This document shows positions 18,205 to 41,195 of a DNA stretch of 64,000 nt, one piece after another; positions within the stretch are counted from its first letter, which is position 1, and the number at the start of each line of letters is the position of its first letter. The notes beneath the pieces were generated by a model. The model worked only from the letters and a program-made list of their open reading frames with translations. It did not search any database and was not told where the DNA came from. The position numbers and the translations under genes were made by a program. The stretch spans positions 96,001 to 160,000 of the IMG/VR virus record IMGVR_UViG_3300030060_007423; one strand, written 5' to 3'. The stretch comes from a virus.

Positions 18205-18339
18205 ATAATCAATATTTTATGGTATAAAATTTTTTTAATTCAAGATTTTTAGTTATATTTATAACTTAAAGAAATAACTCCACTATTAGGAGCTATGCAT
18301 ACAATTTAGAATAGAGGTTAGAAAAAAAGAGGAAAATAC

Positions 18340-18753
18340 ATGAGAAATTTAATTTTAACAATTGCTTTAGTATGTGGATTAGTTTTCACATCACAAGCAC
18401 AAAACGCTAAAGGCGACTGGTATGTTGGAACTGGTGATATTGCTAATATCGCTTGGACTGACTGGGCAATAAACCCAACAATTGGATATGCAGTACATGA
18501 CAACCTTATGGTTGGCGCATCTGTATCACAAGCAAATGAAGAAGCTGATTTAGATATGGATTTCCACGCTAGATATTTCTGGAACGGATATTTCGGATAT
18601 GTAGCGACTGATGGACTTAGCACTGATGGCATGCTATTAGGTGCTGGTAAAATGTTTACACTACGAAAAGGTGTCTATGTAGACCCTAAAGTAGTATATA
18701 ACTCAGGAGATAAGACAACGAACCTACAGTTAGGTTTCGGTCTTACATTTTAA
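18340..18753 (+). CDS. Small outer-membrane beta-barrel protein (Bacteroidota type)
   Basis: Signal peptide; AQNAKGDWYVG; C-terminal LGFGLTF. Confidence 0.75.
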   Translation: MRNLILTIALVCGLVFTSQAQNAKGDWYVGTGDIANIAWTDWAINPTIGYAVHDNLMVGASVSQANEEADLDMDFHARYFWNGYFGYVATDGLSTDGMLLGAGKMFTLRKGVYVDPKVVYNSGDKTTNLQLGFGLTF

Positions 18754-18814
18754 TTATTAATTAAACCCTCTAATCTAAATTATTTTATTAACATTAACAA
18801 AGAAGGAGAAAACA

Positions 18815-19062: not shown

Positions 19063-19099
19063 AAACGGCTCTGAAGAAATTTGGAGCCGTTTTATTTTT
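19063..19099 (+). terminator. Intrinsic terminator
   Basis: AAACGGCTC/GAGCCGTTT stem followed by T-rich tract. Confidence 0.8.
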
Positions 19100-19128
19100 A
19101 TTTGTCAATTATTTTTGTTATATTTATT
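19096..19128 (+). promoter_or_regulatory. Bacteroidota sigma70-like promoter
   Basis: TTTGTCAA...GTTATATTTA; near-identical architecture at ~43180 and ~62470. Confidence 0.6.
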
Positions 19129-19544
19129 AAAAAGAAAATCAAACTATGGAAACAATAGCAATTATTTTATTTGGAGCAGCTTGCTTCGCAATGGGAATGT
19201 ATGTAACTACTCAGATAAGTTCATGGATAGACAGTAGGATACAACATAAAAAGTTTATGAAAAACTTGGAAAACTTTGATAAAGACAAAGATGGAAATAA
19301 AAGCGTTTAATAAAGGATTAAAGGTTATAAGTAGTTGTAAGAATTATTCTCAAATTAGAGGAGCTTATAATTATGTACATAACTATAGAATCTTGTTTGG
19401 TAAAACAAAATTATGGAAAGACCTCTATAATTTTTGTGGTAGAAAACGAGAAATGTTAGGAGACTATGATGGAAGATAAGTATTGGGTAACAACAACTAC
19501 AGCTGGTGATTACGAAGTTGTATATCATATAGTGGAGAATTAAT

Positions 19545-21724: not shown

Positions 21725-21805
21725 TGTTAATAACTTTTTTAGCTTTTTTTAGAAAAAAGTCTCCCAAAAATTTTTTTTTCCCAATAATTCTAGTTATATT
21801 TATAT
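21725..21805 (+). promoter_or_regulatory. Repeated early-promoter cassette, copy 1
   Basis: TGTTAATAACTTT...TTTCCCAA-N6-TAGTTATATTTATA. Confidence 0.8.
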
Positions 21806-21830
21806 ATAAATAATTGATAATACTAAAACT

Positions 21831-22286: not shown

Positions 22287-22350
22287 TAACTTTTATAAAA
22301 AAGTTGTGAAAATAGTTTTTTTTCCCAATAATTCTAGTTATATTTATATA
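22281..22350 (+). promoter_or_regulatory. Early-promoter cassette, copy 2
   Basis: Same motif set as copy 1. Confidence 0.8.
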
Positions 22351-22382
22351 TAACAAATTGGTAATAATAATAAATACTAAAT

Positions 22383-28712: not shown

Positions 28713-28804
28713 TCGTTAGATAGACTATCCGGCATGGCTAGACTCACGATAAGAGTGATGGATGGTATGTCAGATTTGCCACTGGTCGTGCCACATTGTC
28801 ATGG

Positions 28805-28858
28805 AAAAAAGTTGTGAAAATATTTTTTTTTCCCAATTATTCTAGTTATATTTATAGT
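28805..28858 (+). promoter_or_regulatory. Early-promoter cassette, copy 3
   Basis: AAAAAAGTTGTGAAAATA...TTTCCCAA...CTAGTTATATTTATA. Confidence 0.75.
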
Positions 28859-28885
28859 ATAATAATGGTTAAAAAATATAATACT

Positions 28886-29062: not shown

Positions 29063-29137
29063 TAACTTTGACAATATTGTTAATAACTTTACGTAAAAGT
29101 ATAGCATAAAACCCAATAAATCTAGTTATATTTATAA
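29057..29137 (+). promoter_or_regulatory. Early-promoter cassette, copy 4 (two TGTTAATAACTTT boxes)
   Basis: Boxes at 29057 and 29078; CCCAA...CTAGTTATATTTATA. Confidence 0.75.
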
Positions 29138-29187
29138 TATAATTGGTTCGGATAGAAATTAAAAATTAAAACAAAAAAACGTCGCTT

Positions 29188-30393
29188 ATGAAAAATGTAA
29201 TCTTAAAAGCTGGTCTTAACGAGAGTGGTAAACCAGTATTGACTGACAAGGTTGGCAATCAGTTTGAATGTCCTGTAAAGGATAAAGCCAACAAACAAAA
29301 ATTAACGTGGGCTGTTAAAAAAGAAGCCTATGTAAAAGTAATAATGAAGGAGGGCGGAGCCATGTCCTACTCAGTATCTAATAGTAGTACTGAAAAGGAT
29401 TGGACTAAAGATGCCACGTCTATATTGACAGACCAGTGGTTGAATAAACCTGCTGCTAATGTACCTGCTGAACAGGCTGAGGTAATGGCATTCATTCAGA
29501 AATCTCCTGAGTTAAAACCAGATACTCTTAAGATGCAAGACCTTAAATGGAAATATCTTGTTAGGTCTGCAATGAGAGGTAAAAATATTATGATGACTGG
29601 TCCTGCAGGATGTGGTAAAACTATGGCAGCTAAAACTGTTGTGAACGCATTAGACAGACCAGAATTTTATTTCAACCTTGGGGCAACTCAAGATCCTAGA
29701 GCTACCTTAATTGGTAATGTCCACTTCAATAAAGAGAGTGGTACGTTCTTCTCTGAATCAATGTTTGTGAAAGCAATACAGACTGAGAATGCTGTAATAC
29801 TCATGGATGAGCTTTCACGTGCTCACCCCGAGGCTTGGAATATATTAATGACTGTATTAGACGAAGGTCAGAGATACTTAAGGTTAGATGAAGCTGATGG
29901 CTCTCCAACTATTAAAGTAGCTCCAGGTGTAACATTTATCGCTACTGCCAATATAGGTAATGAATATACAGCGACAAGAGTTATGGACCGAGCGTTATTA
30001 GACAGGTTTATTATTGTAGAGATGGATACTCTAAATGCTTCTGAGGAGTTTGAGTTGTTAACAAAACTATTTCCTAATGTGGATACTAAAACAGTTAACG
30101 CCATATCTGAAATTGCTCATGCTACTAGAGTTGAGGTTAAGAGTGAAGTTGCGAGAATCTCTACTTCTATTTCTACCAGAGCTTGTGTTGAAATGACTAG
30201 CCTTGTTTACGACGGGTTTAGTTTAACAGAAGCTGCTGAGGTTATTATGTATCCACAATACGATGATGCGGGTGGAGCTGATAGCGAAAGAACATTCGTA
30301 AAACAACTTGTACAGAAATTCTGTGACGATGGTACCGATGAAGATTTATTCAACACTGAAGATGTTGACGGTGCTGATGACAACCAGCAATAA
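29188..30393 (+). CDS. MoxR/CbbQ/CobS-type AAA+ ATPase
   Basis: GPAGCGKT, LMDELSR, IATAN and DRALLDRF motifs. Confidence 0.92.
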   Translation: MKNVILKAGLNESGKPVLTDKVGNQFECPVKDKANKQKLTWAVKKEAYVKVIMKEGGAMSYSVSNSSTEKDWTKDATSILTDQWLNKPAANVPAEQAEVMAFIQKSPELKPDTLKMQDLKWKYLVRSAMRGKNIMMTGPAGCGKTMAAKTVVNALDRPEFYFNLGATQDPRATLIGNVHFNKESGTFFSESMFVKAIQTENAVILMDELSRAHPEAWNILMTVLDEGQRYLRLDEADGSPTIKVAPGVTFIATANIGNEYTATRVMDRALLDRFIIVEMDTLNASEEFELLTKLFPNVDTKTVNAISEIAHATRVEVKSEVARISTSISTRACVEMTSLVYDGFSLTEAAEVIMYPQYDDAGGADSERTFVKQLVQKFCDDGTDEDLFNTEDVDGADDNQQ

Positions 30394-30445: not shown

Positions 30446-30525
30446 TGTTAATAACTTTGTTAATAACTTTAGAAAATAACTATGAAATAATTTTTATTTC
30501 CCAACAATAATAGTTATATTTATAT
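30446..30525 (+). promoter_or_regulatory. Early-promoter cassette, copy 5 (two boxes)
   Basis: Boxes at 30446 and 30458; TTTCCCAA...TAGTTATATTTATA. Confidence 0.75.
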
Positions 30526-30557
30526 TATAAATAACGGATTAAACTAATAGAGATACT

Positions 30558-32799: not shown

Positions 32800-33195
32800 A
32801 TGAAAGACAACACAGAGAAATGGAAGTATAGTTATCCATATCAGACAAGGATAGCAACTATTGAACAGGAATATGGTGAACTAGGACAACAGGTACCTGC
32901 AGGATTCTACTTCAGGGATGGCGAGATAATTCGAGCTCTGCTCGATTTTGTGAAACAAAGTGGACCCTGTACATGGACTGAAATGAGCATGGAATACCAC
33001 TACCTGTTCACAAACATGGAATATCATCCAGTCAATCACCGTGGTGGTAGTTTCAGTAGTGGTCACTATCGTAGCCTAATGACACCAAGACGTAGAAGGA
33101 TAGGCAATGGCAATTATGAATATATCCGTAAAGGAGATGATGGTCTATACCGATACCATACACATGCTCTGGGTTATAGTGGTGTTAATTGTTAA
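32800..33195 (+). CDS. Hypothetical protein
   Basis: ORF. Confidence 0.6.
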   Translation: MKDNTEKWKYSYPYQTRIATIEQEYGELGQQVPAGFYFRDGEIIRALLDFVKQSGPCTWTEMSMEYHYLFTNMEYHPVNHRGGSFSSGHYRSLMTPRRRRIGNGNYEYIRKGDDGLYRYHTHALGYSGVNC

Positions 33196-33246
33196 TAACT
33201 TTTTCATCAATAATTTTTATTTCCCAACTATTATGGTTATATTTAA
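33190..33246 (+). promoter_or_regulatory. Early-promoter cassette, copy 6
   Basis: TGTTAATAACTTT...TTTCCCAA...GGTTATATTTA. Confidence 0.75.
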
Positions 33247-33271
33247 TTATCAAATAAAAACAAACTAGATT

Positions 33272-34172: not shown

Positions 34173-34246
34173 GGACCAGTAGCTCAGCTGGATAGAGCAA
34201 CAGCCTTCTAAGCTGTAGGTCATAGGTTCGAATCCTATCTGGTTCA
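34173..34246 (+). tRNA. trnR: tRNA-Arg(TCT)
   Basis: GGACCAG/CTGGTTC acceptor stem; D arm; anticodon loop CTTCTAA; GTTCGAATC T loop; CCA not encoded. Confidence 0.95.
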
Positions 34247-34394
34247 CAAAGGATAAATTATATGGTAGAATTTTTGAAACATTTTTTTGGAGTATGTGGA
34301 GAACCACATCCCAGTGTACTAACTATCCTAATGGGTACGCCTGTTGTGGGATACATAATTTACAATATAAGACAATATATAAAAGGAAAGAATA

Positions 34395-34634: not shown

Positions 34635-34710
34635 TAACTTTTTTACATATTATATGAAAATAACTATGAAAATATTTTTATTTCCCAAATATTCTAGTTA
34701 TATTTATATA
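34629..34710 (+). promoter_or_regulatory. Early-promoter cassette, copy 7
   Basis: TGTTAATAACTTT...GAAAATAACTATGAAA...TTTCCCAA...CTAGTTATATTTATA. Confidence 0.8.
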
Positions 34711-34746
34711 TAAATAAATAACTAATACTAATTAAAAAATAACACT

Positions 34747-39219: not shown

Positions 39220-39407
39220 TGATAATTCCAGAACAATACAAAAATGATTTGGATAAAATATATGAAAGAACTAAAAACTCTAATGAAAAAATGTTAATGG
39301 AATTCAAAAAGTATTTTATGAATGTTGAACCAAAGGAGTTAAATTCAGACTGGGCATGGGTAGCAACACAATGTTATCATGTATATAAAAATAAATCTGA
39401 CCGCTAG
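39216..39407 (+). CDS. Hypothetical protein
   Basis: ORF; 3' end overlaps the tmRNA acceptor piece. Confidence 0.5.
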   Translation: MMIIPEQYKNDLDKIYERTKNSNEKMLMEFKKYFMNVEPKELNSDWAWVATQCYHVYKNKSDR

Positions 39408-39625
39408 TACTTATGTCAGCTGCATTCTTGGACCCGGGTTCGAATCCCGGCATCTCCACTAAAACCCATTATGATATGGGGATGACACGGATTTGACAGG
39501 ATGATAAGAGCATAAGGAAGGTCACCGCAACAACTGGCGAACAAGTTGAAATGGCGATGGCAGCGTAGTACGCTCCCTGACCCGAACGGTATAAAAGAGG
39601 TCATGTCGTAAAAACCTCGGAGGAT
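39397..39625 (+). ncRNA. ssrA: Circularly permuted (two-piece) tmRNA, tag (A)GEQVEMAMAA
   Basis: T arm and 3' acceptor strand (CCGGGTTCGAATCCCGG CATCTCCA, 39433-39458) precede the 5' strand GGGGATG (39478); G3.U70; tag ORF at 39536-39568. Confidence 0.9.
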
Positions 39626-39643
39626 GGTAGGTAAACTATAATT

Positions 39644-40387
39644 ATGAGCATAGAAACAAAATATTTTTCAATTGACGATTTATATAACGTAGATAACAAA
39701 TCTTCGTTTTGGAAATTTATAGAGGGCGAAGTAAAAGTTGCTTTAAGTAAATCTTCAATGTCAAGTTCAAAAAAAGCAGATGCTCTTAATCTATTTAAGA
39801 AACAATATATTAAAAAGTTTTTTATAAGACATACTAAATCACCAAGTGATTATAATAAACCTTGGGATTTAGATAAATATGACCTAGAGTCAATTAAAAA
39901 TAATACAGATGGTCAATGGGCACCACCACCTAATGCTGATGACTATAGGTTTGATTTAGAAAATGCTCAATATGTAATTGAAAAATTTATATGGATGCAA
40001 ATACACCCAGATGATAGAAGGGATTTATTTGATAATGATATTGATAAATTTGATGACTGGGTTGTAACATTATCTGAATCACAAATAGATGAAGTTGTAC
40101 AAAAAATTCAAAATGGTGAAAGACTAGGTGATCTTGATTATGAAAGTATAAAGGATTCACTATATGAACTTGATGATGGTACAATCAGAGTATTTAAGAT
40201 AGACGGATTAATGATTATGTCTTCACTAAATAAAGATTCGCTGGAAACAGCATGCGTAAAAATCTTTATGAAGAAAGGTATAACATTTAAGTATAGAACA
40301 ACTGAAAACTATAAAGGAAAAACTGTACACTCCTATATATTTAGGATTGACGGACGTAATGACAATAAAAATGACAATATGTCATAG
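39644..40387 (+). CDS. Hypothetical protein
   Basis: 247-aa ORF. Confidence 0.65.
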   Translation: MSIETKYFSIDDLYNVDNKSSFWKFIEGEVKVALSKSSMSSSKKADALNLFKKQYIKKFFIRHTKSPSDYNKPWDLDKYDLESIKNNTDGQWAPPPNADDYRFDLENAQYVIEKFIWMQIHPDDRRDLFDNDIDKFDDWVVTLSESQIDEVVQKIQNGERLGDLDYESIKDSLYELDDGTIRVFKIDGLMIMSSLNKDSLETACVKIFMKKGITFKYRTTENYKGKTVHSYIFRIDGRNDNKNDNMS

Positions 40388-40495
40388 TTACTATAGTTTG
40401 CACAGTTTTTTCAGTATATTAATTAAAGGTTATATAATGGTTATATTAAGTGTACTGAGTAGGCACAAAATTAAAATTATCTAAGGAGATTAATT

Positions 40496-40930
40496 ATGGG
40501 AAATTATTTTTTACATGAGCGGTTGTTTCCAACCGACTTATTTTTCAAAAACTTTTTTGATACACAAACTGAGTTTCAATCGTTTGCAGATGTTAAGCCA
40601 CAATATCCAGTTGATATTATGGTAACAGATTATGCACTAACGTTTGATATTGCATGTGTTGGTTTGGACAAAAAAGATATAACATTAGACGTTACTGATA
40701 ATACCTTACGGGTTATCTATGAAAAACCAAACATTGAATCAAATCCATCTGATGAAGATGCAGGTGAATATATCCATAGAGGTATTACTCGGAAGAGTTT
40801 TAATATGGGTTGGAAAATTGCACCACGGTATGATTTGAGTCAAATAGAAGCAGTTATGAAAAACGGATTGTTAAGTATAACAATTCCATTGTTTGAAGAA
40901 GCAAAACCAAAAACAATTAAAATTAAATAA
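40496..40930 (+). CDS. hsp20: Small heat-shock protein Hsp20
   Basis: YPVDI, YIHRGI..KSF and A.MKNGLLSITIP motifs; C-terminal IKI. Confidence 0.92.
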   Translation: MGNYFLHERLFPTDLFFKNFFDTQTEFQSFADVKPQYPVDIMVTDYALTFDIACVGLDKKDITLDVTDNTLRVIYEKPNIESNPSDEDAGEYIHRGITRKSFNMGWKIAPRYDLSQIEAVMKNGLLSITIPLFEEAKPKTIKIK

Positions 40931-40961
40931 ATAGTGTTTTACTCAGTACACTTTTTTTATT

Positions 40962-41195
40962 ATGAACTATAGAATATTCAAACATAATAACAAGTTATAT
41001 AAGGTATTAAGAGAAATACCACAAAGCAATTGTGACCCACGACTATATGGTATCAATTCAAATGATTTTATGAAGGTATTACATGTTTGGAAGGAATGGT
41101 GTTTAGCAGACCATGTATTACGAACTGCTAAAGGGGAAGAAATAGTATTTTTACTATGTGAAACAATACAAGAAGCTGAAATAATATCAGAATAA
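40962..41195 (+). CDS. Hypothetical protein
   Basis: ORF. Confidence 0.55.
   Translation: MNYRIFKHNNKLYKVLREIPQSNCDPRLYGINSNDFMKVLHVWKEWCLADHVLRTAKGEEIVFLLCETIQEAEIISE

Follow-up and report, generated by a model that had tools for sequence, protein, structure and literature searches.

The hsp20 gene of an uncultivated ocean phage is enclosed by two complementary arms, one at the start of its leader and one just past its stop codon, and covariation among related loci shows that the helix formed by these arms is under selection as a structure of the sense-strand RNA that closes the transcription unit. Comparison of the loci further showed that the helix travels with a self-contained module comprising a promoter-like motif, the 5′ arm, an open leader with a Shine-Dalgarno sequence, the gene or genes, and the 3′ arm. 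Regarding its function, our best reading, and one that we consider reasonably probable, is a 5′UTR-3′UTR closing helix that would control the fate of the mRNA, closest to that of the Bacillus subtilis hbs mRNA, from which the effect is argued by analogy.

The 64,000-nt stretch analyzed here (hereafter, the window) comprises bases 96001-160000 of the IMG/VR record IMGVR_UViG_3300030060_007423 (170.8 kb), has a G+C content of ~32%, and holds essentially all of its genes on the + strand. A T4-type baseplate wedge gene and a DNA ligase are present in the window, and the source virus is placed in a clade of marine myoviruses, the nearest cultured relatives by baseplate protein being the Flavobacterium phage vB_FspM_immuto (42%) and the Microcystis phage Mel-JY01 (47%). 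The product of the enclosed gene is an Hsp20/alpha-crystallin protein (Table 1), and a DNA search of cultured phages with its locus returned zero matches. At the protein level, no match was obtained among cultured phages at 1e-10, with just 25–33% matches to the Hsp20 of cyanophage, Pelagibacter-phage, and Methylophilales-phage. The ORF following hsp20 begins with an ATG at 40962. We also noted a two-piece (circularly permuted) phage tmRNA two genes 5′ of hsp20 (39409-39568, or 39367-39659 via ARAGORN; Rfam RF04321, 65.6 bits; tag GEQVEMAMAA), and a tRNA-Arg (TCT) at 34173-34247 (73 bits).

Table 1. Features of the hsp20 module and of the two other bracketed genes in the window.
Feature	Position	Strand	Description
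ATATTAATT	40416..40424	+	Degenerate copy of the promoter-like ATATTTATA; putative promoter function
TATAAT	40433..40438	+	-10-like hexamer, 9 nt 5′ of the 5′ arm; read from sequence
5′ arm of closing helix	40448..40466	+	14-nt core (40448-40461) plus GGCAC
Leader	40467..40495	+	A/U-rich, essentially unstructured; strong Shine-Dalgarno AAGGAG at 40483-40488, outside the helix
hsp20 gene	40496..40930	+	144 aa, the "loop" of the closing helix; Pfam HSP20 PF00011, E 3e-12
3′ arm of closing helix	40934..40953	+	GUG, bulged U, UU, 14-nt core (40940-40953); begins 4 nt past the stop codon
T tract	40954..40958	+	Abuts the helix; T7 at 40952-40958 including 40952-53, with 5 beyond the arm
MoxR-type ATPase gene	29188-30393		AAA_5
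137-aa protein gene	18340-18753		No Pfam match; imperfect complementary flanks at 18303-18319 / 18764-18781

An earlier note on this DNA, made from the sequence alone, had described a perfect 14-bp reverse complement bracketing hsp20, extended by GGCAC/GTGTT and followed by a T tract, and each of these elements was recovered. At exactly the coordinates described, AAGTGTACTGAGTA (40448-40461) matches TACTCAGTACACTT (40940-40953) at 14 of 14 positions, the extension is real at the RNA level through two G·U wobbles (G40462/U40939 and G40463/U40938), one bulged U (U40937), and the pairing of CAC (40464-66) with GUG (40934-36), and the T tract is present. The extended helix comprises ~19 bp with an energy of ~-25 kcal/mol at 37 °C. 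Upon folding of the putative full-length RNA (40445-40960), the closing helix appeared in both the MFE and centroid structures (z -3.65), and the predicted mean pair probability of the 14 core pairs was 0.95–0.97 at every temperature from 10 to 65 °C. The note had also proposed that the 3′ arm can alternatively form a local AGTGT/ACACT hairpin; this hairpin is present but of low stability (-4.9 kcal/mol, z -1.0), with 32 of 200 shuffles folding equally well.

The leader lying between the 5′ arm and the start codon showed no more structure than its shuffles when folded alone (-4.3 kcal/mol, z 0.27). Its Shine-Dalgarno sequence stands about 17–22 nt beyond the helix and is unpaired in the closing helix, and the ATCTAAGGAGATTAA block with the strong Shine-Dalgarno is kept in all lineages. 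In the predicted fold, GGAGA (40485-40489) of the Shine-Dalgarno region pairs weakly with UUUUU (40508-40512, codons 5-6) in a manner resembling a fourU thermometer, which may reflect just Phe/Leu codons in an A+T-rich genome.

On a single sequence, arms such as these are not significant, since a perfect inverted repeat of at least 14 bp with a spacer of at most 600 nt occurred in 34% of the dinucleotide shuffles of the window (mean 0.38). The window by itself therefore proves nothing, and the significance of the arms lies in their placement and in the relatives. As for placement, the hsp20 pair had the top score (35) among the 588 gene-flank pairs of this genome, the maximum of 2000 far-pair controls being 34, and hsp20 was the top outlier (z -5.8) of a duplex-energy scan covering 192 genes. 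Each arm is single copy in the entire 170.8-kb genome, by which a repeated element was rejected, as was membership of the PeSL, dispersed repeat, or MITE classes. Near-matches to the arms with up to 3 mismatches numbered 12 in the window (8.7 expected), and a scan of IMG/VR with the 14-mer gave mostly single chance matches.

Across the 192 genes, no excess of flank complementarity was found beyond the few bracketed genes (8 rank-0 genes vs. 6.2 expected), and near and far flank pairs shared the same score distribution. Given this, bracketing is a property of a few modules and not a general system, and the "system" proposed in the earlier note does not hold in the genome-wide sense. One further candidate, a bracket around the upstream gene 39644-40387 (AAACTATA/TATAGTTT, 39625-39645 / 40380-40402, followed by T6; z -2.9), was rejected as probably due to chance, given it is not kept in the one clear relative (L347); a wider look gave two usable loci.

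Protein-guided searches returned 6, and then 80 viral and 59 metagenome hsp20 loci, for a total of ~140 relatives, all of which appear marine. Using the 88 loci with distinct flanks, we looked for complementarity between the leader (-110 to -18) and the 60 nt that follow the stop codon. The longest perfect Watson-Crick run reached at least 10 bp in 58/88 loci (66%; 6% in cross-locus controls) and at least 12 bp in 39/88 loci (0.7% in cross-locus controls), with a run length of 11 at most in the reversed control. More than ten unrelated arm sequence families occupy the same positions, with the 5′ arm 41–80 nt before the ATG and the 3′ arm 1–21 nt past the stop codon; examples include AAGTGTACTGAGTA, AACGTACTAAGTGGGC, AATACAGGCAGGTT, GGTGGACTGGA, CACTGCGGGTTGG, CTGCGGGCCAGT, CAGTAGGTTGGGT, ATACCGGATGGGTATTT, ACCTTAGGGCG, and GTGAAACCTTAGG. 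The 5′ arm of the window is identical or nearly identical in several relatives (L128-L131, L208, L209, L212, L213, and L237), and other lineages carry a different 5′ arm, always with a matching 3′ arm. Many lineages have just 10–14 perfect pairs, and several families have helices of ~19–27 bp.

The earlier note had inferred end-to-end pairing of the hsp20 mRNA and named covariation of both arms across phage hsp20 loci as a means of checking it. This covariation proved to be massive and, together with an asymmetry in the wobble pairs, bears out the inference. With each arm aligned separately within families, 24 double changes were compensatory vs. 4 that were pair-breaking (the arm families overlap phylogenetically, and these counts are not independent events), while among one-sided changes, subject to the same overlap, 23 were kept as wobble pairs vs. 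16 that were broken. Family A, to which the window belongs, and family B are linked by three compensatory changes. In a strand-symmetric count of transition-type mismatches within the helices, G·U outnumbered A·C by 26 to 7, where composition predicts a ratio of ~1.1:1 (p = 0.003). The selected structure is therefore that of the sense-strand RNA, and not of the DNA or the antisense strand. In these uncultivated ocean phages, the arm sequence has turned over completely more than ten times while compensatory changes preserved the end-to-end architecture, which constitutes unusually strong natural genetic evidence that end-to-end closure of the message is selected.

Approximately ten loci at first seemed to be without a 3′ arm. 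Eight of these (L210, L221, L159, L244, L198, L200, L227, and L239) carry a DUF2061 gene after hsp20 (PF09834, Pfam E 2e-22; absent from the window), which encodes a 68–79-aa membrane protein and lies inside the helix loop. In all eight, a 3′ arm belonging to the same arm families as those of single-gene loci is found 2–5 nt past the DUF2061 stop codon, or +221 to +231 from the hsp20 stop codon. Given this placement, the helix encloses the transcription unit and not hsp20 as such, following the unit when a second gene is added. At least 19 different gene families are found upstream of the module and at least 11 downstream of it, and the similarity of the window to three relatives (L001, L003, and L004) starts ~24 nt before the 5′ arm and stops at the last base of the 3′ arm. 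As similarity is confined between these limits, the helix marks the edges of a self-contained expression module, which is compact, portable, and directly testable in a reporter. In two of these relatives, the gene right after the hsp20 module (L001, 2899-3600; L003, 3474-4181) encodes a protein of ~235 aa with paired Cys motifs, which by eye looks like an HNH-type endonuclease and would fit a hyperplastic, shuffled region.

In 45 of 61 unique loci (4% background), the 45 nt preceding the helix contain the promoter-like ATATTTATA with at most one mismatch, separated from the helix by 1–24 nt (modes of 7 and 14–15 nt). Within the window, 16 of the 20 copies of ATATTTAT are intergenic and upstream of genes, and the ATATTTATA motif forms the core of an ~80-nt repeated intergenic element. 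Because it is intergenic, precedes genes, and forms the core of a repeated element, ATATTTATA is very likely the promoter of this clade. Three distant relatives (L203, L207, and L257) have TGTATAAT 6 nt 5′ of the arm. A promoter-like motif this close to the helix would place the 5′ arm at or near the 5′ end of the transcript, probably within a few nucleotides of it, and transcription starting ~7 nt past the TATAAT hexamer would put the arm at the extreme 5′ end.

In the reading we favor, the arms would pair in the sense transcript such that the ~19-bp helix links the beginning of the hsp20 leader with the 3′ UTR immediately after the stop codon, closing the whole unit (hsp20, or hsp20 and DUF2061 in some relatives) into a panhandle. 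The helix would act in cis on the fate of the message, most likely by burying the 5′ end or leader and the 3′ end in duplex, where both would be shielded from 5′-end-dependent and 3′ exonucleolytic decay, and the open leader would be insulated from flanking sequence wherever the module lands. By analogy with hbs, protection of both ends of a short, heavily translated message is the most likely effect. The next ORF begins 4 nt past the T tract, too short a distance to accommodate a promoter. Read-through by at least some transcripts is therefore required in the window, and the RNA need not end physically at the 3′ arm. Processing of such read-through transcripts at the closing helix by host RNase III would be a compatible addition.

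Pairing between the 5′ UTR and 3′ UTR is established for the hbs, icaR, and hok mRNAs (PMC5737220, PMC3868564, PMC9841398), and the description of the hsp20 arms in the earlier note as a previously unrecognised arrangement was therefore overstated. In B. subtilis hbs, a 14-bp 5′/3′-UTR pairing modulates or limits RNase Y cleavage in the 5′-UTR (Braun, Durand & Condon 2017, PMC5737220; reviewed in PMC7821165), as demonstrated by mutagenesis and RNase mapping (PMC5737220), and this pairing is not conserved in close relatives (PMC7821165). The hsp20 arrangement resembles that of hbs in its long-range pairing between UTRs, in its short, monocistronic, and strongly translated mRNA, and in its strong, unoccluded Shine-Dalgarno sequence downstream of the pairing. 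As in hbs, the complementary leader and 3′ UTR segments of one gene (40448-66/40934-53) lie outside the ribosome-binding site, and natural compensatory changes indicate that it is the pairing, and not the sequence, that matters. Unlike hbs, the hsp20 helix is known from covariation across more than ten arm families, occurs on a DNA phage as part of a shuffled module, and may enclose two genes.

In Staphylococcus aureus icaR, the two UTRs of a single mRNA pair with each other, forming a duplex that is an RNase III substrate (PMC3868564). The likeness to hsp20 lies in this pairing within one mRNA; however, the icaR 3′ UTR masks the Shine-Dalgarno sequence and represses translation (PMC3868564), whereas the hsp20 Shine-Dalgarno sequence lies outside the helix and is not the target of its 3′ arm. 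The 5′ end of the hok mRNA likewise pairs with the 3′ end of the full-length molecule (fold-back inhibition, tac/fbi), locking one conformation (PMC9841398). The type I toxin hok remains silent until 3′ trimming occurs and is under antisense RNA control (PMC9841398), in contrast to hsp20, for which we found no antisense partner or alternative pairing. In T4-like phages, PeSL promoter-terminator cassettes are regulatory motifs that bound shuffled modules in hyperplastic regions (PMC2839356, PMC4122927). A PeSL is a direct repeat that is present in multiple copies and bears a local stem-loop, whereas each genome has a single inverted pair of hsp20 arms, the sequence of which is lineage-specific. 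Our searches of the literature for phage hsp20 stem-loops or phage mRNA panhandles found nothing relevant; end-pairing is known for a few bacterial mRNAs, and we found no published report of a case in a DNA phage.

Paired flanks are also a feature of rRNA processing stalks, which enclose rRNA, and of phage T7 RNase III sites, which are local intergenic hairpins. The hsp20 flanks resemble the former in enclosing a functional RNA, and a hypothetical cleavage by host RNase III could either excise hsp20 from a polycistronic RNA, as at an rRNA stalk, or trigger decay, as in icaR and the sib retroregulation of phage lambda. We regard such negative control or processing as unlikely. RNase III needs a duplex of about two helical turns, a length approached by the helix in the window (~19 bp with one bulge) and by those of several families (~19–27 bp), although the range among relatives extends from 27 bp down to 10 bp and many lineages offer just 10–14 perfect pairs. 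The read-through demanded in the window is likewise compatible with processing, as is the RNase III site made by 5′-3′ pairing in icaR (PMC3868564), but a search for a phage-encoded RNase III found none, and the long-kept strong Shine-Dalgarno sequence and open leader argue for high expression and against silencing. The earlier note had described the stem as terminator-like, and a loop-sized intrinsic terminator, in which the 3′ arm and U tract would terminate transcription only if the far-upstream 5′ arm were free (a conditional terminator or insulator), would account for the T tracts seen in part of the group: at least 5 T within the 7 nt after the helix occur in 19 of 52 unique stems (6.6% expected), including the window and families B and C. 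No adequate local hairpin precedes the T tract in the window, or, by inspection only, in families B and C. Such a terminator is nonetheless improbable as the function of the helix. The description suits approximately one-third of lineages and fails for the rest, given about two-thirds of stems are without a T tract and in some lineages (L006 and L199) the 3′ arm is followed further on by an ordinary hairpin terminator; termination cannot be the function that all lineages share. A loop-sized terminator may still operate in some of them. In the window, read-through is also needed for the downstream ORF, and an intrinsic terminator with a ~480-nt loop is, to our knowledge, without precedent. An ordinary intrinsic terminator was rejected for the window as well, where the U tract is present but the AGUGU/ACACU hairpin (5 bp, 10-nt loop) is weak, as noted above, and was uncalled by a terminator scan.

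Small heat-shock genes are classic targets of RNA thermometers (ROSE, fourU), and with hsp20 as the bracketed gene, the earlier note had suggested that the pairing may be temperature-sensitive, the end-to-end helix melting on heat shock and thereby altering hsp20 expression. The predicted stability of the helix from 10 to 65 °C (a pair probability of ~0.96 throughout) means that simple melting cannot make it a thermometer, its Shine-Dalgarno sequence and AUG lie outside the helix, and similar bracketing is seen at genes unrelated to heat shock; we therefore consider this suggestion highly improbable. Much the same low standing applies to a DNA-level element, whereby the arms would be protein-binding sites, or would serve a mobile hsp20 cassette as its terminal inverted repeats or recombination sites. 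The arms do lie at the limits of a module that recurs in many genomic contexts, but they covary without the conservation of sequence expected of a protein site or transposase end, and the G·U excess over A·C is strand-specific. There is, moreover, one pair per genome with no further copies, and by eye no target-site duplication at 40442-47 / 40954-59.

The earlier note had listed three genes in the window as enclosed by inverted repeats, and all three have lineage-specific arms at fixed positions in their relatives, which suggests that the closing of ends is not peculiar to hsp20. The MoxR-type ATPase gene is bracketed by a perfect 10-bp pairing of CGTCGCTTAT (29180-89, overlapping the ATG) with ATAAGCGACG (30390-99, overlapping the stop codon). 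Among its relatives, 24 of 60 unique loci (3.9% in cross controls) can pair the start region (-20 to +10) with the bases immediately past the stop codon through a run of 10 bp or more, with ~10 different arm sequences. In the gene encoding the 137-aa protein, the arms of relatives lie at -36 to -48 and +16 to +21 and differ in sequence by lineage (CGAAAGCATGTT, AATGAAGAGC, AATTAGAGAGCTC, GAGAGCATT, and GCGCGATG). No excess of G·U was found in the stems of these two genes (G·U vs. A·C of 1 vs. 3 for MoxR and 5 vs. 7 for the 137-aa protein). With the 5′ arm over its start codon, the MoxR gene is the closer match to icaR in the window, and its pairing looks like occlusion of the start codon by the 3′ end. 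This suggests repression and not protection, and one mechanism may not fit all three genes.

A broader proposal would have certain accessory genes of this clade (hsp20, the MoxR-type ATPase, and the 137-aa protein) expressed as closed-loop messages, in which the ribosome terminating at the stop codon would open the helix and so couple termination to renewed initiation or to the loop-sized terminator. We consider this rather doubtful; if true, it would represent a bacterial-virus counterpart of the eukaryotic closed-loop mRNA combined with a portable expression module.

Some other inverted matches around genes in the window proved to be spurious, owing to the partly palindromic core of the promoter repeat (TATTTATA/TATAAATA). 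The AT-rich matches at 21800/22341 and 29129/30520 are direct copies of this repeat and were rejected as gene-closing stems. The ~80-nt intergenic repeat itself lies at 19071-19150, 21747-21826, 22291-22370, 28799-28878, 30467-30546, 33190-33269, and 34651-34730, and also at 29112-29143. Its layout, a small AACTTTT..AAAAGTT hairpin followed by a T run, CCCAAT, and then TAGTTATATTTATA, is like that of a PeSL promoter/stem-loop cassette.
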